64,000 nucleotides of DNA from Methanoregula sp. (lineage in GTDB: Archaea > Halobacteriota > Methanomicrobia > Methanomicrobiales > Methanospirillaceae): assembly GCA_041662685.1 (NCBI GenBank), contig JBAZRZ010000003.1, positions 1,372-65,371 of the forward strand, read 5' to 3'. The position numbers and the translations under genes are program-made. A model generated the notes under the pieces. That model did no database searches, had not been told where the DNA came from, and saw only the letters and a list, made by a program, of their open reading frames with translations. Below are positions 7,166 to 59,569 of the stretch, one piece after another. Numbering within the stretch: position 1 is the first letter of the stretch; the number at the start of each line of letters is the position of its first letter.

Positions 7166-7190
7166 ATTCGTTGCAGGGGCACGGAGGGGG

Positions 7191-7210
7191 GGTAGGGGTA
7201 CCCCCCTACC
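7191..7210. terminator. GC-rich palindromic hairpin between convergent genes
   Basis: GGTAGGGGTACCCCCCTACC (core palindrome GGGGTACCCC, extended with a CC bulge) lies between the sensor-gene end and the fen stop. Confidence 0.35.
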
Positions 7211-7211
7211 G

Positions 7212-8213
7212 CTAAAACCAGTTCTCCAGTGTCTTCTGCCCTACCTTGACCGTGAAATTCTCGAGCGCCTTGTTCACCCGCTCTTCAGAGAACTCATATC
7301 CCCCGCAGAGCATCTTTTTTATTCCCTCTGTATCGGGATGTCCCCATACAAGAGTATAATCGTCCGTCACCGGGGGGTGTAAGAAGAGGTCCATCACTGG
7401 GGCAGGATCGAAGTCCGGCTGCTTCTCTTTGAGTTTTTGCCGGAATTCTCCTTTCTGCACGATCTTGAGGCCCGTCTTTGCCCCAACGCCGTCAACACCC
7501 GGGTTGAAATCGGTCCCGATCAGGATGCTGATCTCGATCAACTGCTCGCGGGTGAGGTGAAGTCCTGCCAGCACTTCGGCAAGGACCAGCCGCTCCGGGC
7601 TGACCGTAATGGTTCGCCCCCGCATCTTGCGTTTGCCGCTTACGGTAAGATTGCGGACAAGGTTGGGAGCACCGAACAGCAGGGTATCATAATCCTGTGA
7701 CACCACATACCGGGCTTCGCCTTTGGCCACCATGTAGGATGCCTGGGCCTCCCCCTCTCCGGGTGCCTGCACGAACGGGATTCCCAAAAGCCCGAGCAGT
7801 TCCTTGGAAGACGCAATGATTGCCGCATCCACCCGGGTGGCAGATCTAGCCTGCTTGTATGCTTCTGCCTCATCCCCGCGCTCGATCGCTTCCTTCCAGC
7901 GTTCACCCGCCGTGTCGCGAATCTTCCTGCGCTGGTCGACCGTTGCCTGTTTGAGTTCGCCGGGTTTCCCGTCAAAGACAAAGACCGGTTTGATCCCCTT
8001 GTCCATGAAGTTCGCTATCCGGAATAGGATGCCGGAGAGGTGGGAGGTGACCCGTCCCCGCCCGTCCATCAATGGTGTGCCGTCAGGCTGGCGGATGATG
8101 GTTAAGAACTGGTAGAGGGTATTGTTCGCATCGATAGCCGCGATACCGGGAATGGTCTCCAGTGTGACCGGTGTCTTATACTCTGCCAGAATATCCCGAA
8201 GTGCAACGCCCAT
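7212..8213 (-). CDS. fen: flap endonuclease 1 (FEN-1)
   Basis: 333 aa starting MGVALRDIL, with XPG-N/XPG-I motifs ([24 protein letters not shown]) and H3TH (IGTDFNPG). The stop codon is TAG. Confidence 0.9.
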
Positions 8214-9907: not shown

Positions 9908-11005
9908 TCAGATCGATTCGGGAGTCATACCCGCACGGGTTGTACGGGGCTTCCTGACTGTCCGTTTCCGTTTGGGTTTTTTGACTTTCTCGGAGTCGTC
10001 ATCATCATCATTCATCTCCATCTCTTCGGGATCATGCCTGATGGGAGACCGGATATCCACAACCTTCTTCTTATCCACCGGTTCCGGCTTGCGTAACAAT
10101 ATTTCTGCGAGCACCGCATCGACACCGTCCCCGGTCTTGGTGGACATCGTTATGTACCCTTCCGCCCCGACAATATCCGACTTGTTGGCAACAACGATCA
10201 TTGGCACGTCAACCATTCCGGCCACTTCATCGCGCAGGTGAAGCTGGACTTCCATGGGATAGCCGCAGTGTTCCGAGGGATCGAGGATGAAGACCACCAG
10301 ATCTGCGACATTCATCATTGCAGAGAGTGCCTGCCGCTCGATTTGGTTGCGTTCTTCTGCCGGACGATCGAGGATACCCGGTGTATCTACGAACTGGATT
10401 CGCTCGCGGGGGAGATCCCGGTGACCGATGATGATTCCTTTGGTAGTGAAGGGGTATGCTGCCACGTCCGGGGCTGCCGAGGAGACCCGTTTGATGAACG
10501 AGGATTTCCCGACATTGGGGTAGCCTGCAATCACGATGGTGTACGCATCCTCTACATGGGGGAGATGGCGCAGGACATTTCTCACTTCGTTTAAGAAGAG
10601 CAGGTCCTTATCGATCTGGTGCACCATGGAAGCGAGCCGGGCCACCGCGCGTTTGCGCACAATGAGGGTGTCGGCAGCCTTGCGGGACTGCCCTGCCAGT
10701 TGGTTTCCAATCATCTTCGTATGCTTGGCTGCCCAGCCCACTGCCCCGAAGGCCATCTTTATTTTTTCAATTCCGTAGAGGATATCGGCCAGTTCCCGGT
10801 AAAACGGGGGGAGTTTATCAAATTCGGGAAATCCCCGTATAATATAAACAAGGCGATCGTGAACCGCTGCACCAACAGCCCGGACGAACTCTTCGTTCGC
10901 GCGCTCCTTGTTGGTCTTCTCTTTCATCTTTTTAGCTGCACGGCGAAAACTCCGGTCAAGGATCTCATCCGCAGTTGGCACCGTTGGCATTGTTTCGAAT
11001 TCCAT
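9908..11005 (-). CDS. NOG1-family GTP-binding protein
   Basis: Contains G1 GYPNVGKSS, G3 DTPG, G4 NKSD, an N-terminal NOG1 region and an acidic/basic C-terminal tail. The start is taken at MEFETMPTVPTADEILD; Met at 10990 is an alternative. Confidence 0.85.
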   Translation of the reverse strand: MEFETMPTVPTADEILDRSFRRAAKKMKEKTNKERANEEFVRAVGAAVHDRLVYIIRGFPEFDKLPPFYRELADILYGIEKIKMAFGAVGWAAKHTKMIGNQLAGQSRKAADTLIVRKRAVARLASMVHQIDKDLLFLNEVRNVLRHLPHVEDAYTIVIAGYPNVGKSSFIKRVSSAAPDVAAYPFTTKGIIIGHRDLPRERIQFVDTPGILDRPAEERNQIERQALSAMMNVADLVVFILDPSEHCGYPMEVQLHLRDEVAGMVDVPMIVVANKSDIVGAEGYITMSTKTGDGVDAVLAEILLRKPEPVDKKKVVDIRSPIRHDPEEMEMNDDDDDSEKVKKPKRKRTVRKPRTTRAGMTPESI

Positions 11006-11017
11006 AAATCGCCTACC

Positions 11018-11028
11018 TATATATTTAT
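11018..11028. promoter_or_regulatory. TATA-box-like element in a divergent promoter
   Basis: TATATATTTAT lies about 25-30 nt upstream of the ATG at 11052 and between the divergent NOG1 and HTH-CBS genes. Confidence 0.4.
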
Positions 11029-11051
11029 GGACCGTCATACGGTATATCGTT

Positions 11052-11936
11052 ATGGACCTGTCCCTAATCCAAAAAGATATCCTAATCACCCTCATCACCC
11101 TCTACCACCTGTAGTCCCACTCCATCAAGGGGGAGGAGATCGCCGATCTCATCCAGCGCAACCCGGGGACCGTGCGCAACCAGATGCAGTCGTTAAAAGC
11201 GATCGGGCTTGTGGACGGTGTGCCCGGTCCGAAAGGGGGGTACATTCCCACAGGTCTTGCCTACCGGGAACTCAACCTGAATGTTTCTGAAGATGGCGAT
11301 TATGATGTCGCTATCAGCAAAAACGGGGTTGTGGTCAACGGGGCAAATGTCCAGGAGATTGCTTTTAACACCCTCTACCATCCGGATGTCTGTCATGCAG
11401 TGATCAAACTGGTCGGGAGTGCCAAACTTTTTGATATCGGCGATCAGGTAACCGTTGGTCCTACACCGGTCAACAAGCTCCTGATCCGGGGCGAGGTATT
11501 TGGCAGAGATGAGTCCAAACAATCTCTTCTCATTGCCACCTCATAGATCATTTCGCTTCCCAAGAAACCGATCAGGGCCTACATGAGCAGCCCGCTCAAA
11601 ACCCTGACCCGTGCAAACACGCTTCAGGATGCTCTGGTCCTTTTTAACCATGAACATATTCACGGAGCCCCGATTCTTGAAAACGGGAAACTCTCGGGCA
11701 TTATCACGATGAGTGATATCGCAAAATCCATAGAAAAAAAAAAACTGCCCATGACGACAAAAGTTTCGGAAGTGATGACAACTGATGTCGTGGAAGCTCC
11801 TGCAGATACCCGGCTTTTTGAAGTGATCCGCAGGTTCAAGGAGCGGGAGATCGGGCGGCTGATCGTTGTGGAGAACGGGATACCTGTCGGGATTATTACC
11901 CAGTCCGATATCATCAGGGTATTTCCCGCGCTCTAA
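11052..11936 (+). pseudogene. HTH + CBS-pair regulatory protein interrupted by two in-frame TAG codons
   Basis: Three consecutive stop-to-stop segments in one frame read [66 protein letters not shown]...LLIATS-TAG-IISLPKKPIRAYMSSPLKTL..., ending in a CBS pair. The first TAG (11112-11114) falls inside the winged-helix domain. The second is at 11544-11546. Confidence 0.6.
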
Positions 11937-11989
11937 ATAGAACATCTTTAGATATTTTTAAATGAAATTGTATGGGTGGAGAAGTATCT

Positions 11990-12199
11990 ATGACAGAATT
12001 ATCCCTGGCTGCAGTTGAACGAATTATCAAAAAGACCGGTGCCGAGCGTGTCAGTGCTGACACCTGCGAGACTCTTGAAGAACTGATGGAAGGGTACGGG
12101 ACATTCCTGGCAAAAGAGGCCAAGAAGATGTCAGACCATGCGGGCAGGAAAACCATGCGTGGATCAGATATCAGAATGGCTGCTGATATGTTCAAATGA
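11990..12199 (+). CDS. archaeal histone (HMf family)
   Basis: About 69 aa: ELSLAAVERIIKKTGAERVSADTCETL...AKEAKKMSDHAGRKTMRGSDIRMA. This is a typical histone fold. Confidence 0.85.
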   Translation: MTELSLAAVERIIKKTGAERVSADTCETLEELMEGYGTFLAKEAKKMSDHAGRKTMRGSDIRMAADMFK

Positions 12200-12287
12200 C
12201 CCCAATCGGGTGATTAATCTTAAAAACAACTCTTTTTGTCCCGTCCTTTTAGAACAGTTTAAATATTTATACGACGTCAATTTTTTT

Positions 12288-12542
12288 ATGACTCGTGTAT
12301 TTGCCCGCACCCTTTCGCGCAAGAAGATTATGAGCAACGATGGTAAGCTTGTCGGTACCTTAAAAAACATTAGGGTCGATCTTGATTCAGGACAGGTTCT
12401 CGAGATGCTTGTCCACCCTGATCAGACATTCGACACGGCAAATTATGATATGGAAGATGACAAGATCTTAAAAATTTCCTTTGAAGCGGTAAAGGATATC
12501 AAGGATTATATTGTCGTCGATCGCTTTGCGGCGCGAAGGTAG
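12288..12542 (+). CDS. PRC-barrel domain protein
   Basis: 84 aa: LSRKKIMSNDGKLVGTLKNIRVDLDSGQVLEMLV...DYIVVD, a PRC-barrel-like pattern. Confidence 0.55.
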   Translation: MTRVFARTLSRKKIMSNDGKLVGTLKNIRVDLDSGQVLEMLVHPDQTFDTANYDMEDDKILKISFEAVKDIKDYIVVDRFAARR

Positions 12543-13223
12543 GACTCATATTTTTCTATCACTTCTACAAATCCATCCCCATATTCTTTTTCTGCAACAT
12601 ACTGTGCCGCTGCCTTGATATCCTTGTGACCATTTGCTACGGTTGCTCCGATGCCGGCAGTTGTCAGCACCTGGATATCGTTGAGTGAATCTCCGATAGC
12701 AACAAAATCTGAAGGTAACATCTGCATCTCCAGTGCCAGTGCATGAAGGGCCGTTCCCTTATTCACTCCGGGGGACTGCAAGTGGATGGCATACCCGGTA
12801 TCGAGCACCTGTACCGGGTATTCTTTTAAGAGCATTTTCACTTCATCGACCGGTACTGTGCGGCCAAATGCCAGATCGAAATAGCGATAGGTGGGGCTGT
12901 AGAGCTCCAGTTCTATTCCCTTCGTGCGGTAATTCATCTGGAGTGATTCCAGTGCAGTAACGGCATACCTCCTGATCGCCCCTGATGCGTGGGGTGCCGG
13001 TGAATCCGACCCGGAACACCCCGCCGTTCTCTGCAATGAGGGTGCCGTGGGTACCGATCATTTTACAGAGAGCATCCATAAAGCAGGACGTGTTCCCGCT
13101 TGCAAGTACTACTTCAATTCCATCGTCTACAAGAGACCTGATAGTATTGATCGCACCGGTATTGATCCGGCGGGACGAATCCGTGATCGTCCCATCAATA
13201 TCTGTCAGGACCGCTTTTAGCAC
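12506..13223 (-). pseudogene. HAD-family phosphatase (phosphoglycolate phosphatase-like), frameshifted
   Basis: The N-terminal ORF has DIDGTIT (HAD motif I) and ASGN. The C-terminal ORF has KG (motif III) and GDSLNDI (motif IV). The two ORFs overlap in different frames around 12975-12995. Confidence 0.7.
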
Positions 13224-18245: not shown

Positions 18246-18572
18246 ATGGAATCCTCAGACATTGTGGTCATTTTCTGCACAATACCCGTTACTGAATCCG
18301 AAGCAATGGCCCGGGCACCGGTAGAGCGCAGGCTTGTTGCCTGTGTCAATATAGTCCCCGTGCACTCCTGCTACAGCTGGAACGAGGAGTTCTGTTCGGA
18401 GCCTGAGCACCTGCTCATTGCAAAGACGAAAGAATCGATGAAAACAGAAGTTATCACCGCGATTCGACAGTTGCACAGCTATGAGGTGCCCGAGATCATC
18501 GCAGTGCCGGTCATTGCGGGATATGCCCCCTACCTTGCAGGGGTACATGCCGAGACAAAGGATGAGGTCTGA
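18246..18572 (+). CDS. cutA: divalent-cation tolerance protein CutA
   Basis: 108 aa: LVACVNI....S.Y.W......E..LI.KT......L......HSYE.PEI. Confidence 0.85.
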   Translation: MESSDIVVIFCTIPVTESEAMARAPVERRLVACVNIVPVHSCYSWNEEFCSEPEHLLIAKTKESMKTEVITAIRQLHSYEVPEIIAVPVIAGYAPYLAGVHAETKDEV

Positions 18573-18665
18573 AACGTGACACTCATATTTCAATGGCGGG
18601 ATGCGCAAGGTTATTGCCTGTAGTGAGTAATGAAGTTGTACCAATCAGCAGGGATAGGTTAAAGC

Positions 18666-19139
18666 GTGACAGGAGAACCAACAACACAACCGGGAACTGC
18701 ACTTCTCGTGCTCGGGTGCCCGCAGGTACCGGTACAGACAAGCATTGCACTGTACCTGATCAACCGGCTTAAAAAATCGGGCATAGTGCCCACTGTTGCC
18801 GGCAACAAGGCTGCAAATATGCTTCTCGTGGTTGCAGATCCCGACCGGCATTACCTGGGCGAGGTCATGGATCTCGACCGGGCGGTGGTCATGATCACCG
18901 AGAAGAAGCGGGACTTTGACCGTTGTTTTGTCTTTATCCATAATGATGCCGGTGTTACTTATGCCGGGACGATGAGTGCGATTTCAAAGGTGAAGATTTA
19001 CACGATCATCTACGGTGAGCATTATGAGGACCTGGTAAAACAGATGGACTTCCCCTGTACCATCATTGCAGCAAAAGCCGTGCATAATCCCCTACCCTTA
19101 AAAAAAGCGCTCGATGAGGTGGCACCATGGGCTGCGTAG
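18666..19139 (+). CDS. conserved methanogen hypothetical protein (DUF1890-like, from memory)
   Basis: 157 aa soluble protein (ALLVLGCPQVPVQTSIALYLINRLKKSG). It overlaps the next gene. Confidence 0.45.
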   Translation: MTGEPTTQPGTALLVLGCPQVPVQTSIALYLINRLKKSGIVPTVAGNKAANMLLVVADPDRHYLGEVMDLDRAVVMITEKKRDFDRCFVFIHNDAGVTYAGTMSAISKVKIYTIIYGEHYEDLVKQMDFPCTIIAAKAVHNPLPLKKALDEVAPWAA

Positions 19140-19402
19140 AATCAATGGATTACGAGATCGTGCTCCGGGATGCGACTTTTAAGGAGTCCCGCGATTATAT
19201 CAAAAAAACCTATGCCGAATTCCGGGATGTAGAACCCGGGTTCAAAGTCTTTGATGTTCACGTGATCGGGCTGCCCCCGATTGCTATCGGGCTTGAAGGA
19301 GATTTTGTGATCTTTCCCTTCACCAAACCGTGTCATGGCACATTCCTCCTGCGGGTTGAGGACAAGGATGAGGCTGCACGACTGCGGGCATTAAAAAAAT
19401 GA
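19127..19402 (+). CDS. conserved methanogen hypothetical protein (DUF1894-like, from memory)
   Basis: 91 aa. Overlaps the preceding gene, so probably co-translated. An alternative start is at 19145. Confidence 0.45.
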   Translation: MGCVESMDYEIVLRDATFKESRDYIKKTYAEFRDVEPGFKVFDVHVIGLPPIAIGLEGDFVIFPFTKPCHGTFLLRVEDKDEAARLRALKK

Positions 19403-19475
19403 AGACCGGTTGTTCCGGTAAGATAGAATATATAATATATCGATATAAATTATAATATTATCAGACAGGTTTACT

Positions 19476-19862
19476 ATGACGGGCAAAGGAAAAATTCTCC
19501 TGATGGATGACGAGCAGATCATCCTTGATGTCACTCAGGAAGTCCTTAAGTTCCTTGGCTATGAAGTGATGTTTGCCCGTGAAGGGCAGGCTGCCATTGA
19601 GATCTATAAACGAGAGAAGAATGCCGGCGCTCCCTTTGATCTGGTCGTTCTCGATCTCCCCGTTCCTGATGGTATGGGGGGAAAAGAGGCAATCGGCGGG
19701 TTAAAGGCGTTTGATCCTGAGGTAAAAGCGGTTGTGTCCACCGGATATTCCAGTGATCCCGCTGTGCTGGATTTTGCCAGCTATGGTTTTTCGGGGAAAC
19801 TCACAAAACCCTACAAGATCAATGACCTGAAAATTGTCCTTGAGCAGTTGATAAAAAAATAA
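19476..19862 (+). CDS. single-domain response regulator
   Basis: 128 aa with ILLMDDE, VVLDLPVPDG, VVSTGYS and LTKP. It is preceded by a very AT-rich stretch (19423-19462). Confidence 0.85.
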   Translation: MTGKGKILLMDDEQIILDVTQEVLKFLGYEVMFAREGQAAIEIYKREKNAGAPFDLVVLDLPVPDGMGGKEAIGGLKAFDPEVKAVVSTGYSSDPAVLDFASYGFSGKLTKPYKINDLKIVLEQLIKK

Positions 19863-20385
19863 GGAAGATAAACCGCATTTTATCTGTTTTTGGTATGAAT
19901 TTTCTCAATCGCGTCTTCTGCTGAGGCAAAGATAAGGGATTTTGCTGTAGGTTCACCTCTTATGGAGAGTGCCAGTGCGCATCGTCCACTGGAGATCAGA
20001 GTTTTTTTCCTTACGCGTGGCAATAAGTGGCTGAATGGCCGGTTCACCGATCTCAGCAAGGACGAGGGTAGCACGCCAGTACACATTCTGCTCCGGCTCT
20101 TTTAATGCCCTGATCCTGAGTTTTACTGCGGTCTCACCGATATCTCTCCGTTCAAGCGCAGTTCTTCAACTACAATCCCTTACCTGTGTATGCTTTTTTT
20201 TTAAGACTCTCTTCCAGGCACTCTTATAAGGATGATAGGGAACGCTCGTCTATTCGAATATAACTATATGAATAAATCCCCCTGTGGGTAAAGTTGCTTT
20301 GACATTTTTATTACGAAAAACCGGTTTTTGTGTATACCAAATTATTTAGCCGCTCCGGCAGTATCAGAACATACGAGGATCTAAT

Positions 20386-22037
20386 ATGAATGAGGTATCT
20401 GTTCTGATTGGGGGAAAAGCAGGAGATGGTATCAATAGTGCAGGCCTGATAGTGGCACAGTTACTGAACCATCTTAGTTATCGCATCTATCTCTATTTCG
20501 ATTACCCGTCCCTGATCCGGGGCGGGCACAACTTCGCAATCATACGCGGTTTGGAATGGGATGTGGGAGCCTGTCGCAACTCTGTTGATTTGGTACTGGC
20601 CCTCAATGAGGAGACCCTTGAGCGGCACAAAGAAAAATACACGGATAAGACGGTGATCATCGCCAATAAGGATCTCGTAAAGAACAGCGATCATGGTATT
20701 CCGGTAAAGGCTATCCTTGCTGACGAAAATGCCCCCGGTATCATGGGCAACTCAGCACTCATCGGGGGATTTGCCAAAACTGCAGGGATCGTGTGGGAGG
20801 TTGTTGATGCGGTGTTCCGCAGGCATATCCCGAAAGGTGCAGATCAAAATCTTGCCGTGGCAAAAAAAGCATTCGACCTGTTTGATCCTGTTCACATCAT
20901 TAAAAAATGTGAAAACCGGCCGCAGTCCCTGGTCTCGGGAAATGAAGCGATCGGATTGGGATTGGTCCGGGGCGGGCTGGATGCCTATGTATCGTATCCC
21001 ATGACTCCCTCTTCAGGGATTCTCCATTTTCTAGCCGAGCAGAAAGAGCGGTTTGGCATAACTGTTGTGCATCCAGAGAACGAGATTGCGGTGGATCCTG
21101 ATGGCGCTCGGGTTTGCGTATGCCGGAAAAAAGTCTGCAATCGGCACTTCCGGAGGAGGATTCTGCCTGATGACCGAAGGGCTCTCGCTTGCCGGAATGG
21201 CAGAACTTCCTGTGGTGCTCGTTGTTTCCCAGCGAACCGGCCCCTCAACCGGACTCCCTACCTATACCGGGAAAACCGATCTCTTGTTTGTCCTCCATGA
21301 CGGGCACGGGGAGTTTCCCCGGCTGATCGTTGCCCCCGGGGATGCACAGGAAGCCCTGTACTGGTCAGAACGAGCAATGGATATCGCATGGAAATGCCAG
21401 ATCCCGACGTGCATACTTGCCTACAAGACGCTCTCTGAAGGCATATACAGTCTTGATCCTGCCGCAACCGGGAGTCTTTCCGGTGCAGGGCCGCTCCTGT
21501 GGGATAAAACGATCCCCTATCGTCGCTATGAGAATACAGAACCGGGCATCTCCCCCTGGCATTTCCCGGTATGAATGATGCAGTAGTAAAGGTGAACGGG
21601 TACATGCATGATGACGCGGGAATCACGGTAGAAGATGCAGATACCACAAACTGGATGACAAAAAACGCTTAAAAAAAGGGGAGACCTTAACCGATGTAAT
21701 GGATGGCTTCCCCGGTGTGATCCAATCGGGCACACCCTGCGCAGCCACCGCCTTGCTCTGCTGGGGATCGACAAAAGGTGTCTGTGAAGAGGCAGCGGCC
21801 GAACTCGGTCTCCGGGTCGTACGCCCAATAGTTCTCGCTCCGTTCCCGGTCGATCAGATCAAAAAAGCACTTGCTGGTGTGAAACGGCTGATTACTGTCG
21901 AAGAGAATGCAACTGCCCAGCTGGCTGCTCTGGCAGAGCGGCATGGGATTATTACCGATGAGAAGATCCTGCGCTATGATGAACGGCCATTTACCGTTGA
22001 GGCACTGGTCCTGCGGGTACAGGAGGCGGGTATCTGA
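20386..22037 (+). pseudogene. 2-oxoacid:ferredoxin oxidoreductase gamma-alpha fusion subunit, multiply frameshifted
   Basis: Gamma domain (GGKAGDGINSAG) followed by alpha domain. The protein is spread over at least 4 frame segments, with shifts near 21095, 21570 and the A6 run at 21660-21665. Each segment continues the expected homology (ENEIAV / MALGFAYAG...; ...WHFP / GMNDAVVKVNGYMHDDAG; ...KRLKKGETL...). Confidence 0.75.
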
Positions 22038-23890: not shown

Positions 23891-24892
23891 ATGGAGAGAG
23901 GAATCAGGAACGGACTTATAATCTGCACTATTCTCGTTTTTGTGATATTGATTGCCGGTTGTTCAGATCAGTCATCTGCTGGTTCGACTACACCGGTACC
24001 CACGACCGCATTGCCAGATGCAAAGTTTGCAGCAGGAGACATCATTGCCAAATCTGCTTCATCAACGGATAAGGCGTTATATGTCGTTACCCAGTACGAT
24101 GCGAAGAAAGATATGTACACCCGTGCCTGGATCTACAAAAATGTCGACGGGTCATGGGGACACTTCAATGACAATAAAACGGAAACCGTTGAAAGAACCC
24201 TTATCGAGAAAGTCTATCCGGTGAAAATCGCCCGGGTGACCGTCTCATCTGTAAAGATTGTCACCCCCACCATCCCCCCAACAGTTGTCACAACCCTTTA
24301 CGGCAGTGCTCCCACGGTGACGGCTATATCTCCTGCGAGCGGCACCAAGAATGCAATTGTTGGCGTAACTATCACTGGTACAAATTTCGAGAGCGGTGCA
24401 ATGGTACAGTTAACGCGGGCCGGGTACGCATCAATTGCGGCAACCGGTGTATCCGTCTCTTCTGCGACTTCAATTGGCTGTACCTTCAATCTCAATGGCG
24501 GGGACGAGGGCAACTACAATGTCGTGGTTACCAATGCCGGCGGGCAGTCTGATTCCAAAACGGGTGCGTTCTCAATTGGTCAGGCACCTCCCATTATCAC
24601 GAGTGTTTCTCCCAATACCGCTGAAGTGGGAGATACCCAGATTCCAATAACCATCAATGGCCAGAATTTCAAGGATGGGGTGAAAGTAACCTTTGTTCAG
24701 GGAACAAACACCCCTCTTGACTGTGTGACTCCCACGTCTTTTGCTACCACAACGATTACCTGCGTTCTTGATCTCAAGACATCCAACGGTGGCAAATCCG
24801 GTATCTGGGATGTGAAAGTGCTGAATCTCGGGGACACGCAGACAGGTACATTGTTCGGGAAATTTACGGTTACCAATTCAACCAGTACCTGA
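23891..24892 (+). CDS. secreted/lipid-anchored protein with two IPT/TIG-like Ig-fold repeats
   Basis: Signal peptide with a lipobox-like LIAGC. Two repeats of the type P.I..ISP..G......V.I.G.NF..G..V. Confidence 0.65.
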   Translation: MERGIRNGLIICTILVFVILIAGCSDQSSAGSTTPVPTTALPDAKFAAGDIIAKSASSTDKALYVVTQYDAKKDMYTRAWIYKNVDGSWGHFNDNKTETVERTLIEKVYPVKIARVTVSSVKIVTPTIPPTVVTTLYGSAPTVTAISPASGTKNAIVGVTITGTNFESGAMVQLTRAGYASIAATGVSVSSATSIGCTFNLNGGDEGNYNVVVTNAGGQSDSKTGAFSIGQAPPIITSVSPNTAEVGDTQIPITINGQNFKDGVKVTFVQGTNTPLDCVTPTSFATTTITCVLDLKTSNGGKSGIWDVKVLNLGDTQTGTLFGKFTVTNSTST

Positions 24893-25050
24893 TCTCAAAT
24901 TTTCATTTTTTTGTATTCTCCGGCCTTTTGAAATGCAAGAAATCATCTCCATACTTCCTGATTTCTGATCTGATTCATTGCACTACTACGGTTTTTCCTC
25001 CGCTCCACCACAAACTATTAACACCCCCGATCGGTAAAAAATAGATAATC

Positions 25051-25650
25051 ATGGTCGAAGCCTTCCTCACATCCCCCCTATTTGGCCTTGTGGTGCTGCC
25101 GTTCATGATCTTCTGCGCCCGCGTCTGCGACATGAGCCTCGATACGATCCGTGTCATATTCATGTCGAAAGGGATCAAGTACCTCCCGGCCATCATCGGT
25201 TTTTTCGAAGTGATCATCTGGCTTGTTGCCATAGGTCAGGTAATGAATAACCTGACAAATGTAGTCTGCTACATTGCTTATGGGGCCGGGTTTGCCACCG
25301 GGACCATTGTCGGTATGGCGATCGAGGAGAAACTCTCCCTTGGCCTGACCAGTGTCCGCATCATTATCAAAGAAGATCCGTCAGACCTGATGCAGTACCT
25401 CAGGATGCATGATTATGGGGTTACGAGTATTGATGGGGAAGGGGCGACCGGGAAGGTGAAAATGGTCTTTACCATCATCAAACGGCAGGATCTTCCCCAT
25501 GTAATTAGTATAATCACGCAGTATAACCCCGCCGCATTTTATTTCATAGAAGAGGTAAAATCCGTTGCAGAAGGGGTGTTTCCTGAGCGGAGAGCACGGG
25601 AAGTATTTTCCTGGCTGGATTCCCTCCATTTTTACCGGCAGGGAAAATGA
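25051..25650 (+). CDS. UPF0316 / DUF2179-family membrane protein
   Basis: Three N-terminal TM helices plus a C-terminal soluble domain (HDYGVTSIDGEGATGKVKMVFTIIKR). Confidence 0.7.
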   Translation: MVEAFLTSPLFGLVVLPFMIFCARVCDMSLDTIRVIFMSKGIKYLPAIIGFFEVIIWLVAIGQVMNNLTNVVCYIAYGAGFATGTIVGMAIEEKLSLGLTSVRIIIKEDPSDLMQYLRMHDYGVTSIDGEGATGKVKMVFTIIKRQDLPHVISIITQYNPAAFYFIEEVKSVAEGVFPERRAREVFSWLDSLHFYRQGK

Positions 25651-25981
25651 TCCTCTGCATATGTATATGAATAAATTGCAAACGAAATCCGGTCGTACAG
25701 TCATTTTTTGTCCACAGTCCTGGCATGGATACTCTTGTTTTCCTTTTCTCACTCTGGTGCATACCGGTACTGTAACTGGATTTTTAAATCCCTGCTGAAT
25801 AGTCAGGATTCTCTTTGTCATTGTTATGGGAATGATCTCTCTTCACATGTTTGTTTAAGGGTTGTTTGATGGCCGGTTTTTCATCTGCCTTTGTCTCCCT
25901 GTTGCTGATAAAAACTAAAATCTTCACCATGTGTTGTCTATTTTCCATCCAATAATCATTTAATTCCCCATTCCCTAAACT

Positions 25982-26487
25982 ATGTCAAGGAAGCTTATGA
26001 CGGTCATAAAGACAATAAAAAAAGTCATATGTCTCGTGCTTGCCATCGGCATCTGCCTGCTCGCAGGGTATATCGGTTCCATGTATTCTACCCCCTCCAT
26101 TCCAACATGGTATGCAGGTCTCCAAAAACCTGACCTGACACCCCATCATGGGTCTTTGCACCTGTGTGGACTGCTCTTTACCTTCTCATGGGAATCTCGC
26201 TCTACCTGATCCTGCAGGCGGGTATCTCCAAAGAGGAGGTTTTTGTCGGGCTTCTCCTCTTTATACTCCAGTTGGGGCTGAATGTCGGGTGGTCGTTTCT
26301 CTTCTTCGGCCTGCATACACCATTTTTTGCATTTATGTGCATTATCGCTCTCTGGGCTTTCCTGTTATGTACGATCATCCAGGTTTTCCGGTTCTCGATA
26401 ATCGGTGCAGCCTTGCTCATCCCGTACCTGCTCTGGATCAGTTTTGCTGCATATCTCAATTATGCGATCATGGTGCTGAATCCATAG
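25982..26487 (+). pseudogene. tspO: TspO/MBR tryptophan-rich sensory protein, frameshifted
   Basis: WYAGLQKPDLTP is followed, in another frame, by SWVFAPVWTALYLLMGISLYL...LNVGWSFLFF. Adding one C to the C4 run at 26141-26144 restores the consensus PPSWVFAPVW. Confidence 0.8.
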
Positions 26488-26594
26488 CACCGCACCTGTA
26501 CGGAAACGGGAAATTAAAAATCCCATTTTCAGTACCGGCTGATAACCAATACCTTCTTTTTCTTGCAGGGTGACGAGAAGATAACGGAGTTTTC

Positions 26595-27860
26595 ATGCCC
26601 ATACAGCAGATCCATGTGGAAAATTTCAAGAGTTTTTCAGAACTCGATATAGAGTTGTCCCGCTTCAATGTGGTAATTGGGTCGAATGCGGCGGGGAAAT
26701 CCAATTTTATCAGTATTTTTAAGTTCCTGCGGGACATTGCACGCCACGGTCTTGCAAATGCGATCGCGATGCAGGGAGGATCAGAGTATATCCGTAATGC
26801 ACGGATCGGGCATGCCCGGAATCTTGTGGTACGGGTTTCCTATACCCCGGATCAGAAGCTGGATCTTATCGATCATAAGACCGGTGAGACTGCACTTCTT
26901 GGGCTCCAATCGTGTGAATCCTCCTATGAATTTGCCATCCGGTTCGATGAGGAGGGTGACGGATTTACAATAATACAGGACCGGCTCGTGATTGGATGCG
27001 AGATATCGTCATGCGAACGAAAGGCAACGAGTGTCCAAGAAAACCGCACTCTTGGACGTGGGGAGATACAGGTGACCAATGAAGAGGGCTATGTGAAGTT
27101 TGCCGTAAATCTCCCTGAGGGATGCACCTTGTCTGAAAATGATATAATTCCGGTCTTTTTCCGCGGGGTACATCTCCCAAAACATGCTCTTCTCCTGGAG
27201 AGTTCGTACGCCTATCCGCTCCCGCACGTAGAGAAATTCTTTGACCGGATCGCGGTGTACGATATCGATCCAAAACTCCCGAAACGAGGGGCAGTACTCA
27301 CCGGAAAACGGGATCTTGAGGAGGATGCCAGCAATCTTGCCGTGGTGGTAAAAACCATTATTGATGATCCTGAGAAGAAACGGAAATTCTCAAACCTGCT
27401 CCGGGACATTATGCCTTTTGTAGAGGATTTCTCCGTGAAAAAGTTCATGGATGTCTCTCTTATTCTCACGCTCCGCGAACGATATGCCAAAAGCTACGAT
27501 CTACCTGCATCCTCTCTCTCTGATGGTACTATCGCCATATTTGCCCTGATCGTCGCCCTCTATTTTGAGGACAAACCATTCATTGTCATTGAAGAACCGG
27601 TAAGCCATATCCACCCGTTCTTAATCGCCCGTGTCATGGCGATGATGAAGGAGTCATCAGAAAAAAAGCAGTTGATGATCACCACCCACAGCACCGAGGT
27701 AGTCAAACATGTCCGTATCGAAGATATCCTGCTCATCTCGAGAGACAGCGATGGTTTCTCGATAATCTCGCGCCCTGCGGATAAAGAAGAGGTCAGGACA
27801 TTTCTTGAAAACGAGATCGGGATTGAAGAGCTCTATGTCCAGAACCTGCTGGGATTATGA
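26595..27860 (+). CDS. ABC/SMC-type AAA ATPase (AAA_15/21-like, OLD-family ATPase module)
   Basis: N-terminal IENFKSF-type start, Walker A GSNAAGKSN, signature-like LSDGT, Walker B FIVIEEPVSHIHP and TTHS. Confidence 0.85.
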   Translation: MPIQQIHVENFKSFSELDIELSRFNVVIGSNAAGKSNFISIFKFLRDIARHGLANAIAMQGGSEYIRNARIGHARNLVVRVSYTPDQKLDLIDHKTGETALLGLQSCESSYEFAIRFDEEGDGFTIIQDRLVIGCEISSCERKATSVQENRTLGRGEIQVTNEEGYVKFAVNLPEGCTLSENDIIPVFFRGVHLPKHALLLESSYAYPLPHVEKFFDRIAVYDIDPKLPKRGAVLTGKRDLEEDASNLAVVVKTIIDDPEKKRKFSNLLRDIMPFVEDFSVKKFMDVSLILTLRERYAKSYDLPASSLSDGTIAIFALIVALYFEDKPFIVIEEPVSHIHPFLIARVMAMMKESSEKKQLMITTHSTEVVKHVRIEDILLISRDSDGFSIISRPADKEEVRTFLENEIGIEELYVQNLLGL

Positions 27861-28420
27861 GCATGAAAAAGCGGCTTTTTATCCTGGTCGAAGGGGAAGA
27901 TGATGTCAGGTTCTTTGGCCGCATCATAAAACCCCTGTTCGTTTCCCGGTATGATTCGATCGAGATCATCCCATATGCCAGTATCAAGCGGGTGAAGGTG
28001 AACAATTTTTTAAAAAGTGTCCGGCAGATGAACAATGATTACATCTTTGTTGCAGATATCGATACCGAACGTTCAGTCCGGGATAAAAAGCAGATCCTGT
28101 TCTTCCATTTCAATAACCTCTCCGGCCACAGCATTGTTATCGTCATCAGGGAGATCGAGAGCTGGTATTATGCCGGATTGTCTACTATTTCTGCCCGTGA
28201 TCTTGGCGTTGAAGAACGTCTGGCAACAGATGATCTGTTTAAGGAAGAATTCAATGAGCTCATGCCCCGGCACTTCGATTCACGGATCGATTTTATGTTT
28301 GAGATCCTCAAATCCTTCTCGCTGGAAACAGCCGTTTTGAAAAACCGTTCGTTTAAGTTCTTTGTTGAGCGGTACCATCTTGCTGAATGGATTCCTGAAA
28401 TACTTCCCCATGATGCATGA
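27857..28420 (+). CDS. small TOPRIM-domain protein (DUF4276/DUF4435/OLD-nuclease-like)
   Basis: 187 aa with LFILVEGEDDVRFF (TOPRIM Glu), FVADIDTE (DxD) and REIESWYYAG. It has an ATGA overlap with the ATPase gene. Confidence 0.7.
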   Translation: MSMKKRLFILVEGEDDVRFFGRIIKPLFVSRYDSIEIIPYASIKRVKVNNFLKSVRQMNNDYIFVADIDTERSVRDKKQILFFHFNNLSGHSIVIVIREIESWYYAGLSTISARDLGVEERLATDDLFKEEFNELMPRHFDSRIDFMFEILKSFSLETAVLKNRSFKFFVERYHLAEWIPEILPHDA

Positions 28421-28511
28421 ACCCGGGTATGATTGATGTGCATTATCGAAATGATTATTTCAAATCTTCACCCCACTTACGTAACAACTAAAACCTTCGG
28501 AGGTTTTTATT

Positions 28512-28679
28512 GTGACGGAAAAATACCAGTGTGCCCTCTGCGGGCATGAACACAACCCTGAAAAGGGAGAACCGCTACAGAACATCCCCCCGGGTAAGGA
28601 ATTTATATCCCTTCCGGAAGACTGGGTATGTCCGGTCTGTGGGGCCGCAAAAAGATTCTTTAACCGGAGTTGTAATTGA
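28512..28679 (+). CDS. rub: rubredoxin
   Basis: 55 aa with a GTG start; not in the ORF track. [18 protein letters not shown]...[26 protein letters not shown] has two CxxCG knuckles. Confidence 0.9.
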   Translation: [55 protein letters not shown]

Positions 28680-28684
28680 TTGCT

Positions 28685-29869
28685 ATGGTTTCACGGGAAA
28701 TTACCACGGGAATTTTTTGGGTCGGTGCGCTTGATTTTGACCGTCGTCTCTTCGATGCCCTGATCCCGCTCCCGAATGGTACGAGCTACAATGCTTACCT
28801 GATCAAGGGAAGCGAAAAGACCGCACTTATCGATACGGTTGACCCTGCAAAGGAGTTTGAGCTGGTATCGAACCTGCTCAAGCTCGGCGTTGAGAGCATA
28901 GATTATGTGGTTGTCAATCATGCGGAGCAGGATCATTCCGGTTCTTTGCCAATGATCCTCGAATTCTACCCCAATGCAATGGTAGTGACCAATGAGAAGT
29001 GCAAAGAATTACTCGTTGCCCTGCTCCAGCTCCCGGACAACCGGTTCAAGATTATCAAGGACAAAGAGACCCTGTCACTGGGTGACCGGACGCTTGAATT
29101 CCATCTGACCCCGTGGACACACTGGCCCGAGACGCAGGTAACGTACCTTAAGGAAGACCAGATCCTCTTCTCCTGCGATCTCTTCGGGTTTCACATGGCC
29201 TCTTCTGACCTGTATGTGGCTGATGATGCTGAATGCTACCTGTCGGCAAAACGATATTATGCCGAGATTATGATGCCATTTCGAACCAGTATCCGGGGGC
29301 ACCTGGCGATAATAAAAGAACTCCCGCTCGAAATGATCGCACCCAGCCACGGTCCCATTCACAAAAACCCGCAGTTCATTCTCGATGCCTATGCCGACTG
29401 GACTTCTGATGCGGTGAAAAACGAAGTCGTGATCCCCTACATCTCGATGCATGGGAGCACAGAGAAGATGGTAGAGCACCTCACCAATGCCCTGATTGCC
29501 CGCAATATTACGGTAAAACCATTCAACCTGAATGTGACAGATATCGGGGATCTTGCTCTTGCACTGGTGGATACGGCAACCGTTGTTGTAGGGACTCCTA
29601 CCGTGCTCTTTGGACCCCATCCCCAAGTGGTGTATGCCACGTACTTAACCAACCTGCTCAAACCCAAAGTCCGGTTTGCCTCCGTGATCGGATCGTACGG
29701 ATGGGGTGGCAAAACCGTAGAAACGATCGTAAAGATGCTGGACCATGTCAAGGTAGAAGTCCTTGAGCCGGTTATAGTGAAAGGGCAGCCGGATGAAGCA
29801 AAATTAAAACAGCTCGACCGGCTTGCAGACGATATATTAAAGAAGCACCGCGAGATCAACATTGTGTAA
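28685..29869 (+). CDS. fprA: flavodiiron protein (FprA, F420H2 oxidase type)
   Basis: MBL-like diiron domain (NHAEQDHSGS) plus a C-terminal flavodoxin-like domain (YISMHGSTEKM). Confidence 0.9.
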   Translation: MVSREITTGIFWVGALDFDRRLFDALIPLPNGTSYNAYLIKGSEKTALIDTVDPAKEFELVSNLLKLGVESIDYVVVNHAEQDHSGSLPMILEFYPNAMVVTNEKCKELLVALLQLPDNRFKIIKDKETLSLGDRTLEFHLTPWTHWPETQVTYLKEDQILFSCDLFGFHMASSDLYVADDAECYLSAKRYYAEIMMPFRTSIRGHLAIIKELPLEMIAPSHGPIHKNPQFILDAYADWTSDAVKNEVVIPYISMHGSTEKMVEHLTNALIARNITVKPFNLNVTDIGDLALALVDTATVVVGTPTVLFGPHPQVVYATYLTNLLKPKVRFASVIGSYGWGGKTVETIVKMLDHVKVEVLEPVIVKGQPDEAKLKQLDRLADDILKKHREINIV

Positions 29870-31795: not shown

Positions 31796-31887
31796 CCGGG
31801 CAAACCTGCCTGTGTTACCCTGCACCACAACTTTACTTTTCTTAACATCAGAAGATCTAATATAAATTGCCACTCCATAGTACGGTG

Positions 31888-32700
31888 ATGAAACAGATCG
31901 CCCTGTATGGCAAGGGAGGTATCGGAAAGTCCACCACCTCGGCCAATCTCTCCGCCGCGCTCTCAGGTATGGGGCTTGATATCCTGCAGATCGGGTGCGA
32001 TCCCAAGCGGGACAGTACCCGGATGCTGATGCACGGGAATTTTATCCCGACCGTCATGGACCTTGTCCGGGTGCGGGGCGAAGCCCCCATAACTCTCCCG
32101 GAGATCGAGTTTACCGGGTTTAATGGTGTCCGCTGTGTGGAGGCAGGAGGGCCGGAACCCGGTGTCGGATGTGCCGGGCGGGGGATCATCGCCACGTTCC
32201 AGCTGCTCGAGAAGTTCGGGGCCTTGAAAGGCGATGTGATTGTATACGATGTGCTCGGAGATGTCGTCTGCGGGGGTTTCGCCATGCCGATGCGCGAGGG
32301 GTATGCGCAGGATGTCTATCTCGTCACTTCCGGGGAATTGATGTCGTTGTATGCCGCGAACAACATCTGCAAAGCGATACATCGTCTTTCGTCGAGGACC
32401 AAAAGCACCTGCCGGTTGGCTGGCGTGATCTGTAATGCCCGGAACCAGCCCAATGAAGAAGAGCTCGTGGCAGAGTTTGCAAAGCGGGTGAACAGCTCGC
32501 TTATCCAGTACATTCCCCGTGATAGGGTAGTGCAACTTGCCGAACTCAACCGGAAGACCGTTATTGAGTATGAACCCGCATCTGCCCAGGCTGAATGTTA
32601 CCGCAGCCTTGCCACACGGGTGATGGAGAATACCTGTTTTACTATACCCACCCCGTTAGAGATTGATGATCTTGAATCCCTTGCCTATTCATACATCTAG
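31888..32700 (+). CDS. NifH/BchL/CfbC-family Fe-protein-like ATPase
   Basis: Walker [10 protein letters not shown], switch regions, and both [4Fe-4S] Cys contexts (GVGCAGRGI and [11 protein letters not shown]). A TATA-like TAATATAAAT lies about 25 nt upstream. Confidence 0.9.
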
Positions 32701-33709
32701 ATTCGGGGGCTGTACTCTCACCGGGGCTCTCTCGGTGACCACTCATGTCCGCAATACTGCCAGTATTGTCCATGGGCCAAAAGGGTGCACGCATCATAAC
32801 TTCTCCCTGTTACACGCTACAGGACTTGATAACGAGACCGTCACCCTGCCGGCACTGGTCTCAACTGCCTTGTGCGAAAGTGATATTGTGTTTGGTGGGG
32901 AAGGGGCGCTGCTCCGGACTCTTGAAGCAGTGGCAGAAAGGGATGTGGATGCAATTTTCGTGCTCTCTACCTGCATTGTTGATACCATAGGGGATGATGT
33001 AGCCGCTATCTGTGGCAGGGAGTATGGGGTGCCGGTGGTCGTTGTGCCAACCGCTGGTTTCCTCGGGGGGACCTTCCAGAACGGGGTTGTAAATGCTCTC
33101 TGTGCGATCGCTGAGGCCGCTGAACCATGTCCGGTGAATAACTGCGTGAATATTATTGGCGAGAAGAATCTTGAATACGAGATTGAGGAGAACTATGCAG
33201 AAGTCGTCCGTCTCTTAGGGACGCTCGGCATTCCTGTCAACCTGCGGTTTGTGCATGATATCACGTTCGATGAGATTGGGACTCTGGGTGCGGCCCGGCT
33301 CAACATCCTCCGGGAACCTGCGCTCATGCCGGTGGGTAATTACCTGAAACAGCGTTTTGGTACCCCTTTTATCCCGTCCTTCCCATTCGGGCTCTCCGGG
33401 ACCCTCTCGTTTGTGGAGTCAGTTGCCGAAACATTTGGCATAGACAGCAGTCATGCTGTGGAAAAAGAACACCTGTTCCAAAGTGATACGCTCGCTGGGT
33501 TTTCCGATCTCACCGGGATGACCGCGTCGTTTGACCCGGCGATGAGTGATCCGGATGGCGTGAATTCTTCATCCGAAGTGGCAGAGGCATTGCAGATCCA
33601 TGTGAAAAACCCGGGCACAAGCGGCATCCCGCTCGATCCCGGCACCCCGGTGGGGACAAGCGGTGTGCGGCGTATGCTCCACCACTGGAGGCGCCAGCTT
33701 CATGCCTGA
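32666..33709 (+). CDS. nitrogenase component-1-like protein (NifD/NifE/BchN-type oxidoreductase)
   Basis: About 347 aa with three Cys in NifD-like contexts: [17 protein letters not shown] and [12 protein letters not shown]. Confidence 0.8.
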
Positions 33710-34832
33710 ATGCACCAATCCCCTCTGGCCCTGTGCGATGACCGGGGCTGCTGCCTGCCTTGCAGGATTCGAGGGGATGACGGTAGTGATCCACGGATCG
33801 AGCGGCTGCTACTATTATCCCACAACACTCCTTCATGCTCCTCTGCACGGAACGTTCATTCTCGAACACGAGATCATCTTCGGCTCAGAGGACCGGCTCA
33901 ACGAAGTGATTGGCGGGTTGTCCGGCCGGGGCAAACGCATTGCGGTTATCACCACTTGTGTTCCGGCAATTCTTGGCGAGGATATCCGGTCGATGCTTGA
34001 AAAGCACGATGTGATCCTCGTGGACAGCCCGGGTTTTTCCGGGGATGTGGAAGCGGGATACAAAAATGCCCTCTCGATACTGGCACCCAGGGTTGATCCC
34101 GGTGCCAGTGGCGTGAACATTGACGGTGTCTGCCTGTTCGATCCATTCTATGCTGGCAATGTGCAGGAGATCCTGCGATTGCTGAGTATGGCCGGTATTC
34201 CGGTGGGGACAATATTTTCGCATGATCGGCTCGAAAAGGTGCAGCACGCTTCACCGTATACGATCGGTACCAACGAGGATTTCTGGAGTGGTATTGGCAA
34301 GTATTGTGGAGGGACGCTCGGGTTCCGGGCGATTGAGGCTACATTCAGAAGGCTGGGGGAGGTGTTTGCGGATGCGGATGTGGACCGGGTCTTTCTGGAA
34401 CTTGAACAGCAGGAAGAGCGAATGGTCCGGGCTTGCGACAAGTACCTGCTCCGGTTCGATCCCCCTTCTGTTGTAATCTTTGCCGGTTTTTCCTATGCAG
34501 TACATGTTGCAACGACACTCGAACGATATCTGGATGCAGATATACGGTGTATCGGTTCGCGCAATACTCCTGGCGAATCGAAATATCCTGTTGAACAAGT
34601 TACCGGGCTTGATGGGGTACGAGCCCTCATCGGACAGTATCATCCTGATCTGGTGATGGGGTCATCCTTTGAGCGTTCAGTCTGTGAAGCCCGGGCCTTT
34701 ACCAGCATCACCCCTCCGTTGAGGGGAACCATCCGGCTTGCTCCCATTCCCTTTGTGGGAATAAACGGTACCCTTTCTCTCGTGGAGCAAGTGCTCAACA
34801 CCTGCATGGACAAAAAACCGCTCAAACCCTGA
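33702..34832 (+). CDS. nitrogenase component-1-like protein (NifK/NifN/BchB-type partner)
   Basis: About 376 aa, paralogous to the previous gene. Cys contexts are WPCAMTGA, HGSSGCYYYP and ITTCVPAILGED. There is an 8-nt overlap with the upstream gene. Confidence 0.8.
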   Translation: MPECTNPLWPCAMTGAAACLAGFEGMTVVIHGSSGCYYYPTTLLHAPLHGTFILEHEIIFGSEDRLNEVIGGLSGRGKRIAVITTCVPAILGEDIRSMLEKHDVILVDSPGFSGDVEAGYKNALSILAPRVDPGASGVNIDGVCLFDPFYAGNVQEILRLLSMAGIPVGTIFSHDRLEKVQHASPYTIGTNEDFWSGIGKYCGGTLGFRAIEATFRRLGEVFADADVDRVFLELEQQEERMVRACDKYLLRFDPPSVVIFAGFSYAVHVATTLERYLDADIRCIGSRNTPGESKYPVEQVTGLDGVRALIGQYHPDLVMGSSFERSVCEARAFTSITPPLRGTIRLAPIPFVGINGTLSLVEQVLNTCMDKKPLKP

Positions 34833-59263: not shown

Positions 59264-59533
59264 GGAAGATCCTCGTAACCGATTAATCATTCTTAAAAAC
59301 CGGGTTGTCATTTTATTGGGCTGACTCTAAAAATAATTTTCTGCATTTTTTTGAAGTGGCCGGGGACGGACCGTGCCTAATTATTTCAGAGGCATGCAGA
59401 TACAGGCACATCCTGTGCCGGGATCTCTTACGGAAAAATGTTACAGAAATACTGTGGTAACGAGCCCTGATGTATCCGAAGTGTCACGAGCATTTTTGTT
59501 GAATTGGTGCAGGGAAATAAGACCACAACATTG

Positions 59534-59555
59534 AAAAAAAAATATTGAAAAAAAA
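59534..59555 (-). terminator. double oligo-T terminator (T8 + T9 on minus strand)
   Basis: A direct repeat TTGAAAAAAAA(A) x2 on the plus strand lies 15-36 nt beyond the stop of the substrate-binding-protein gene. Confidence 0.5.
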
Positions 59556-59569
59556 TGGATTTTTCCCCA

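Follow-up and report, generated by a model that had tools for sequence, protein, structure and literature searches.

The window analysed here is a 64,000-nucleotide stretch of a Methanoregula sp. contig (JBAZRZ010000003.1, positions 1,372 to 65,371, assembly GCA_041662685.1). It carries two adjacent genes, called A and B below, whose predicted products are an ABC ATPase and a small protein with the acidic residues of a TOPRIM nuclease. Coordinates given without a locus name refer to the window, and those of the two genes, their motifs and a flanking tspO gene are collected in Table 1. A first-pass annotation made from the sequence had described a 421-amino-acid (aa) ATPase with Walker A, signature, Walker B and TTHS motifs, coupled by an ATGA overlap to a 187-aa partner with three acidic motifs; both open reading frames (ORFs), the overlap and every motif were located.

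Table 1. Positions of the gene pair, its motifs and the flanking tspO gene in the window
Feature	Position	Strand	Description
Gene A	26595..27860	+	ORF, 421 aa, 47.6 kDa; predicted ABC ATPase of the AAA_15/AAA_21 (OLD/Gabija/Septu-like) clade, HEC-01A type
Walker A (P-loop), GSNAAGKSN	26679..26705	+	A residues 29-37; G29, K35 and S36 invariant in 44 orthologues
Large all-beta insert between Walker A and signature	26823..27110	+	A residues ~77-172; predicted from the AF2 model
ABC signature, LSDGT	27516..27530	+	A residues 308-312; S309, G311 and T312 invariant in 44 orthologues
Walker B and catalytic Glu, FIVIEEP	27579..27599	+	A residues 329-335; E333 and P335 invariant, E334 at least 90% conserved in 44 orthologues
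H-loop, TTHS	27681..27692	+	A residues 363-366; T363, T364 and H365 invariant in 44 orthologues
ATGA stop/start overlap	27857..27860	+	Translational coupling of A and B; read from the junction sequence
Gene B	27857..28420	+	ORF, 187 aa, 22.3 kDa, no Cys; predicted mini-TOPRIM with C-terminal helical bundle, HEC-01B-like
TOPRIM Glu motif, LVEGEDD	27884..27904	+	B residues 10-16; E12 and D16 putative metal ligands (53-member alignment)
TOPRIM DxD motif, VADIDTE	28049..28069	+	B residues 65-71; D67 and D69; D67 invariant, consensus DID
EIESWYY motif	28151..28171	+	B residues 99-105; E101 putative third acidic element
Invariant Lys129	28241..28243	+	C-terminal helical domain of B (53-member alignment)
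Disrupted tspO (flanking, outside the module)	25982..26487	+	Putative pseudogene; TspO_MBR over two ORFs; marks a variable spot

At the A/B junction, ATTATGAGCATGA, the start codon of B (ATG, 27857-27859) runs into the stop codon of A (TGA, 27858-27860). A second ATG at 27863 (MKKRLF), 3 nt past the stop of A, is the start of B in most orthologues, and the coupling is tight with either start. Of 102 loci, about 100 have B starting between -6 and +10 nt from the stop of A, the mode being -4, and a stop separated the two ORFs in every locus examined.

The ATPase, its small partner and known systems

Gene A is predicted to encode an ABC ATPase by profile matches far beyond chance. Pfam AAA_21 (E 1.1e-28), AAA_15 (1.5e-18) and SMC_N (1.4e-13) were found, and the PADLOC model HEC-01A (PDLC04178) covered residues 3-412 of the protein with profile positions 9-373 of 399 (E 9.7e-49), followed by seven more HEC-01A models with E-values from 5e-48 to 2e-33. 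The PADLOC models for AriA, AbiLi, mad3 and GajA gave far lower scores than HEC-01A or matched the ends of A only. The nearest PDB structures to an AlphaFold2 (AF2) model of A (pLDDT 70) were PtuA, Thermus OLD, GajA, retron ATPases and the heads of SMC and Rad50 (E 6e-9 to 1e-6). The all-beta insert of this model is built of long hairpins (strands 77-83, 89-93, 100-117, 124-143, 146-163 and 166-172) and could possibly be a sensor or a partner surface; it resembles Insert 1, the beta-sheet insertion described for HEC-01A (Payne et al., bioRxiv 10.1101/2024.01.29.577857).

In the profile scans, B as a single protein scored above no Pfam or NCBIfam cut-off. Its sub-threshold matches were OLD-like_TOPRIM (PF20469, E 1.4e-3, 19.6 bits against a cut-off of 23.2), DUF3226 (2e-3) and DUF4276 (0.035) in Pfam, and HEC-01B (1.1e-4, residues 47-111 only), mad4 (3.6e-4) and AriB (5.6e-4) in PADLOC. 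A profile search of 1.84 billion representatives returned 1,211 clusters at 50% identity with E <=1e-3, and 363 with E <=1e-30; among the best 150 of the 1,211 clusters the proteins were mostly 165-200 aa long and matched over their full length. In an alignment of 53 distant representatives, 35-47% identical to B, the residues E12, D67, I100, E101, W103 and K129 were invariant, and G13, D16, K78, Y104, T124, N163 and S165 were conserved in at least 90%. HEC-01B (PDLC04191) matched 51 of these 53 relatives (best E 4.8e-10), followed by mad4 (21), AriB (12), Old (five) and AbiLii (one). The Pfam families DUF3226, DUF4276 and OLD-like_TOPRIM matched 10-12 relatives each (DUF4276 ten at E <=0.01, best 5.3e-6), and DUF4435 matched two.

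The metal ligands of AriB, the nuclease of the PARIS system, are E26, D30, D88, E90 and E122 (Burman et al., PMC11464382). The acidic residues of B follow the same pattern, E-x3-D, about 50 residues, D-x-D, 32 residues, E, with E12/D16 corresponding to E26/D30, D67/D69 to D88/E90 and E101 to E122. The acidic residues that had been read at first as the Glu and DxD elements of a TOPRIM fold are thus conserved in distant homologues and spaced as in AriB. The AF2 model of B (pLDDT 79, pTM 0.76) has a core of four strands alternating with helices, followed by a helical bundle; E12 lies just past the strand 6-11, and D67-I-D69 at the end of the strand 61-67. Its best PDB fold match by Foldseek was 6nk8_B, the C-terminal TOPRIM region of Burkholderia pseudomallei OLD (E 8e-3, prob 0.96, TMq 0.46), and the list further includes GajA, Topo VI-A and RecR. 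In a viral structure library an RloB-like protein was top in probability (0.90) and TMq (0.46) and third by E-value. Profile searches of PDB sequences with the B alignments gave chance matches only (HscB, SIGIRR, eS24; E about 1). The TOPRIM assignment of B is well supported at the level of the family, no one test being strong for B alone. OLD nucleases have a catalytic lysine, and by analogy K129 is a candidate catalytic or substrate-binding residue of B.

Among the named systems the best fit is HEC-01, Hma-embedded candidate 01, an ABC ATPase with a TOPRIM partner that has an OLD-like metal site (Payne et al., bioRxiv 10.1101/2024.01.29.577857). Both it and the A-B pair consist of two genes, one for an ATPase (about 360-460 aa) and one for a TOPRIM protein, putative in the case of B, that is smaller (about 190-220 aa) and whose metal site is OLD-like. 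They differ in that B alone matches HEC-01B weakly and partially, and in that the Methanoregula pair lies outside Hma or other defence systems, at a fixed chromosomal locus with housekeeping neighbours. The defence embedding of HEC-01 is absent here, where the neighbours are DUF5698, tspO, rubredoxin (Rub), FprA, desulfoferrodoxin (Dfx) and TrkH, and present in three distant relatives described below (L173, L086, L170). HEC-01 itself is only a candidate type on thin published evidence, with one negative test, given below, and one positive, in which a cold-seep HEC-01 protected Escherichia coli against at least one of the phages T4, T5 and T7. The pair is an archaeal, Methanoregula-wide member of this already catalogued candidate type.

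PARIS offers the best-understood mechanistic model for the pair, because it is likewise split into an ABC ATPase and a separate TOPRIM nuclease and because the five acidic residues of AriB and B have the same spacing. In PARIS the ATPase scaffold sequesters the nuclease, a trigger frees it, and tRNA is cleaved. AriB, however, has a mass of about 35 kDa and includes a DUF4435 region for dimerisation; B has 22 kDa and a different helical C-terminus. PARIS is usually carried on P4 satellites and phages, whereas the B family was not found in the phage and plasmid sets searched. Membership in PARIS was rejected: B has no DUF4435 match at E <=0.1 (two of the 53 relatives do), and the AriA models align with A at its ends alone (best over residues 296-370 and 1-45, with E 4e-28 and 2e-21), well under HEC-01A. 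For MADS, the likeness lies in the related ATPase MAD3 (E 9e-37 for A with NCBIfam, 4e-25 with PADLOC mad3) and in Mad4, a small DUF4276-type Toprim protein (PMC12065111), whose model is matched by B and by the 21 relatives counted above. The MAD3 equivalog NF047739 reached 127 bits on A against a cut-off of 420, and no methyltransferase or other MADS component was found among the flanking genes examined within 7 kb on either side.

The AbiL and RloA-RloB systems also combine an AAA_21-type ATPase with a small Toprim-superfamily partner, at times inside Type I restriction-modification (R-M) loci, as in the relative L173. AbiLi matches A at 2e-26, and the RloB-like viral model is among the best fold matches of B. 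Membership was rejected here as well, B having no match to the Pfam RloB family at E <=0.1 and AbiLii matching one of the 53 relatives; for DUF4276 (PF14103), B reached 14.8 bits against a gathering cut-off of 30.2. The OLD nucleases of classes 1 and 2 (P2 Old, Thermus and Burkholderia OLD, GajA) are built from the same pair of catalytic modules, with the model of A close to that of Thermus OLD and GajA and the model of B to the B. pseudomallei TOPRIM region. In these a single polypeptide of about 530-600 aa carries both modules, a fusion that classes 1 and 2 require, whereas here they are separate genes, and no UvrD-like partner of the GajB type found in Gabija accompanies them. RecF (TIGR00611) reached 28.6 bits, on the N-terminus of A only, against a cut-off of 172; RecR has a helix-hairpin-helix and a Cys4 zinc finger, and B has no cysteine. 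The first-pass description of a split OLD-like module of an ABC ATPase and a small TOPRIM protein is borne out by the family-level matches to HEC-01B, mad4, AriB, Old, DUF4276 and OLD-like_TOPRIM and by the weak OLD and RloB-like folds; its narrower label, PARIS/AbiL/DUF4276-like, had to be replaced, since the pair fails the models of those families and HEC-01 fits best.

Distribution and evolution of the pair

The window stems from a metagenome-assembled genome of Methanoregula, and the protein P0121 is 100% identical to A. Synteny was surveyed in GTDB species representatives, scanned with a close-relative alignment of B, which restricts the matches to close relatives. The scan returned 80 loci, and 78 of them, in 74 distinct assemblies, belong to Methanoregula or Methanoregulaceae, with B 64-90% identical to the copy in the window. 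A common gene order, p307 - p240 - TIG - DUF5698 - (tspO) - A - B - Rub - FprA - (Dfx) - TrkH - NifH-like, was found in every locus with enough flanking sequence. Sequence identity to the window copies rises and falls together for A, B and the neighbouring genes (Pearson 0.76-0.89). The ratio of nonsynonymous to synonymous divergence (dN/dS) was 0.07-0.14 for A, 0.08-0.14 for B, 0.06-0.12 for FprA and 0.08-0.13 for TrkH; dS was alike for the four genes and above 2, that is, saturated. Two contigs of one genome (L032 and L048, DQIQ01), labelled Thermoplasmata archaeon, carry a locus of the Methanoregula type with Methanoregula-level identity and synteny, and are probably mis-binned. In several metagenome-assembled genomes (PIZH01, CAWFSA01, CAZNLI01) two copies lie on separate contigs, which may reflect strain mixtures.

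Presence and absence were scored in an unbiased sample of 48 loci anchored on FprA, from metagenome contigs with at least 2.3 kb of upstream sequence. Both genes were present in 39 loci and neither in nine, and in no case was a single gene found. Empty sites occur even in the closest relatives, with FprA 90-91% identical; there TIG is directly joined to Rub-FprA, corresponding to about 25041 and 28479 of the window. Two empty loci, L121 (about 5632-5706) and L124, carry identical remnants in which the last 25 codons of B are kept (60% identity, E 2e-6), LKEFSTDTAQQKNRSFRFFVSHYRI. This remnant is a deletion scar and direct evidence of loss by deletion. The absence of both genes from nine of the 48 loci, and their loss as a unit, show that the pair is dispensable and not essential for housekeeping. 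The first-pass annotation had allowed that the pair might turn out to be a syntenic and universally present housekeeping operon; syntenic and common it is, and universal it is not.

Between the TIG and rubredoxin genes (about 24893-28511 of the window), DUF5698/DUF2179, tspO and A-B each come and go independently, which makes this interval a variable spot with A-B as one dispensable unit. Four configurations of the interval were found within a clade with 89-91% identical FprA, and Dfx and Rub vary too. No direct repeats or insertion scars were found at the borders of the module, and the flanks join cleanly when empty and occupied sites are compared. The first-pass annotation had also suggested that the pair is an inserted islet. 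This does not hold: the shared locus in 78 Methanoregulaceae loci, the co-divergence with the neighbours, the same purifying selection and a dip in GC content that is only marginal (see below) speak against a recent insertion, and the pair is an old, vertically inherited chromosomal resident of Methanoregula that is occasionally deleted.

Outside the family, relatives of B at about 45-50% identity were found in Petrotoga, Atribacteria, Halanaerobiales, Sedimentisphaerales, Ca. Tripitaka, Bathyarchaeia, Thermococci and Methanosarcinales, and this patchy spread across domains points to horizontal transfer. Ten distant contexts were inspected; B has an A-type ATPase immediately upstream in nine, with 410-422 aa in eight of these and as a 305-aa gene call in L172. 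Several contexts are of a defence or mobile-element kind. In L173 (1-10818) a Type I R-M system holds the pair between its hsdM/hsdS and hsdR genes, beside a 1,349-aa NACHT/DUF8371 protein and with Fic, RHH and PIN genes downstream; in L086 and L170 it adjoins MmeI-like R-M enzymes of 1,075 aa, together with SLFN_AlbA_2 genes and a transposase. In L174 (2170-11764) an islet of PIN, A-B, HNH and HicA/HicB lies between PmbA/TldD genes, and small flanking PmbA_TldD_3rd fragments suggest insertion into or beside a tldD-family gene. L172 is mixed, with an antitoxin nearby and metabolic genes otherwise. Housekeeping genes surround the pair in L081 (def-fmt) and L089 (ELP3, GatD/GatE), and L087 and L088 are housekeeping or neutral. 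The tenth context, L082 from an uncultured bacterium, has a B relative (6989-7543, 46% identical to B of the window) among housekeeping neighbours. One of these is a DUF5698/DUF2179 gene, and a member of that family also flanks the Methanoregula pair. In L088 (3431-7531, Ca. Tripitaka californicus) a flavodiiron gene (ODP and flavodoxin) lies two genes upstream of A-B and echoes FprA; found in one of the ten contexts, this is probably a coincidence.

Possible functions of the pair

A and B probably make up a self-contained two-gene module that pairs an ABC ATPase with a TOPRIM nuclease within the OLD-like superfamily, closest to HEC-01, which would act against invaders or by abortive infection. 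What the present analysis contributes to this reading are the domain identities, the conserved catalytic residues, the obligate pairing and coupling, the purifying selection, the loss as a unit and the defence or toxin-antitoxin (TA) contexts in part of the family. By analogy with known systems we infer that A and B form a complex, what triggers it, that tRNA or DNA is the substrate, and that the outcome is antiviral. Following PARIS, OLD and Gabija, A would dimerise through its ABC heads, with ATP binding and hydrolysis as sensor and switch, and would keep the small metal-dependent nuclease B inactive in a complex. A cue derived from the invader, such as a viral protein or aberrant nucleic acid, would free or activate B, which may then cut structured nucleic acid, either tRNA or DNA, at a two-metal site of E12, D16, D67, D69 and E101. 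Either growth arrest of the infected cell or destruction of the invader would be the outcome.

Several observations weigh against such a role. The neighbours are housekeeping genes (POR, FprA, Dfx, TrkH, NifH-like) without defence genes, both here and in all 78 Methanoregulaceae loci, and A-B evolves at the rate of these neighbours, which is unusual for defence genes. Half of the ten distant contexts are housekeeping or neutral (L081, L082, L087, L088, L089), and the lone B relative of L082 has no A-type ATPase within 7 kb. A tblastn search with B of 72,556 plasmids and 50,697 phages gave no match, and two scans of IMG/VR, with the close-relative B alignment and with P0401, gave no relatives, their sensitivity being limited by the use of exact peptide patterns. 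The TOPRIM assignment of B itself consists of sub-threshold sequence matches and a fold match with TM below 0.5. Finally, a HEC-01 representative gave no protection against a phage panel (Payne et al., bioRxiv 10.1101/2024.01.29.577857).

The alternative reading that stands up best, unlikely as it is, is a domesticated or housekeeping complex for processing or repair of nucleic acids, for example a RecF/RecR-like repair loader or an RNase M5-like nuclease for RNA maturation that is regulated by the ATPase. RecF and RecR are a known housekeeping pair, one an ABC ATPase and the other a TOPRIM protein, and the weak RecF match at the N-terminus of A and the presence of RecR in the fold list of B fit this reading. 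So do the fixed locus, a divergence that follows the neighbours with dN/dS equal to that of FprA and TrkH, the housekeeping neighbours here and in L081, L089, L087 and L088, and the lack of family members in the plasmids, phages and viral contigs searched. However, the pair is missing from nine of the 48 anchored loci, those of the closest relatives among them, with a deletion scar at one empty site, and is therefore dispensable; the patchy spread across domains indicates horizontal transfer, and relatives lie inside R-M, NLR or TA islets. The RecF/RecR version is further disfavoured by the RecF score, far under its cut-off, and by the lack of cysteine in B, which leaves no place for a zinc finger of the RecR type, and the retention of every catalytic acidic residue argues for a nuclease over a scaffold.

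Rather unlikely too is that a module once of the defence type was domesticated in Methanoregula for a cellular task, such as stress-triggered cleavage of tRNA or rRNA or the processing of DNA ends. The suggestion comes from the pair having kept one place next to the oxygen-detoxification operon while the family diversified, from the saturated dS and from a dN/dS of about 0.1. If this were true, the B family, with more than 1,200 clusters, half of the sampled contexts housekeeping and one member lacking an ATPase, would make up a novel class of mini-TOPRIM nucleases, cellular and regulated, and not an immune effector.

It is doubtful that the pair persists as an addiction module like a TA system, in which A would serve as the ATP-dependent antidote to a toxic nuclease, B, so that loss of A alone would be lethal whether or not there is an antiviral role. 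The genes never occur singly among the 48 anchored loci, and in the sole scar found A and most of B were deleted together; the coupling is tight with A translated first. [quoted passage not shown] Addiction, however, normally stabilises mobile elements, and this locus has no integrase, junction repeats or tRNA; the strong purifying selection on both genes over dS >2 also exceeds what addiction needs. Since addiction overlaps with abortive-infection defence, it is not fully exclusive of the anti-invader reading. Least probable by far is that B is no TOPRIM protein at all, its acidic motifs belonging to another Rossmann-like alpha/beta fold without nuclease activity and the ATPase being paired with it for an unrelated purpose: the sub-threshold profile scores, the PDB-sequence searches without a relevant match and the weak fold matches (E 8e-3, TM 0.46), with PurE, TIR domains and SIS-type isomerases ranking close behind, would allow it, but independent weak matches converge on TOPRIM partners of ABC ATPases (HEC-01B, mad4, AriB, Old, DUF4276, DUF4435, RloB-like), the family-level match to HEC-01B is significant, the Glu, DxD and Glu elements are invariant at AriB-like spacing, and the top PDB fold is the OLD TOPRIM region.

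With A-B read as an anti-invader module of the HEC-01 type, a widespread and functionally untested type of archaeal gene pair is now placed within the immune superfamily of ABC ATPases and TOPRIM nucleases, and a compact family of putative TOPRIM effectors of about 175-185 aa, missed by Pfam, is defined. What is mildly new is that a defence-type module has near-core status across a whole family, its presence/absence variants being clean, and that the unannotated B family is so large. The closely related Methanoregula populations that have or lack the pair, at a locus identical in other respects, amount to a natural experiment and could offer a route to the viruses or stresses to which it responds in methanogens of peat and wetland. 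That a 'defence-type' module can act like a core gene over very long periods also calls for caution in annotating defence genes through guilt by association.

Flanking genes and base composition

The first-pass annotation had placed the pair between a disrupted tspO and genes of O2 detoxification, and this was found to be correct. Downstream lie the genes for rubredoxin, an FprA-type flavodiiron protein and desulfoferrodoxin. Upstream, a C-run near 26142-26146 has lost 1 nt, which breaks tspO into ORFs of 75 and 107 aa, as judged against six relatives (L006, L010, L013, L016, L097, L002), all of which differ from the window at this site. The frameshift is also present in an independent Logan assembly (L001), and could reflect either a real pseudogene or a shared homopolymer error. 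Some relatives have an intact tspO (L002) and others have none (L004, L005). Rfam and tRNA scans of the window found no RNA genes.

The pair had further been described as more AT-rich than both flanks. Its GC content is indeed lower than the mean of the window (0.470 against 0.516); this is only the 5.6th percentile of windows of the same size, about -1.7 standard deviations, and the neighbours share the low GC, the stretch reaching past the pair from about 24150 to 29177. The GC of the pair is equalled or undercut elsewhere in the window (10901-12727, 18551-21127 and 59201-61127). Further downstream, at 31867-34832, a NifH-like (Fer4_NifH) gene precedes two Oxidored_nitro genes; these are kept downstream of TrkH in all relatives and are probably NifH/NifD-like reductase genes of methanogens, unrelated to the pair.

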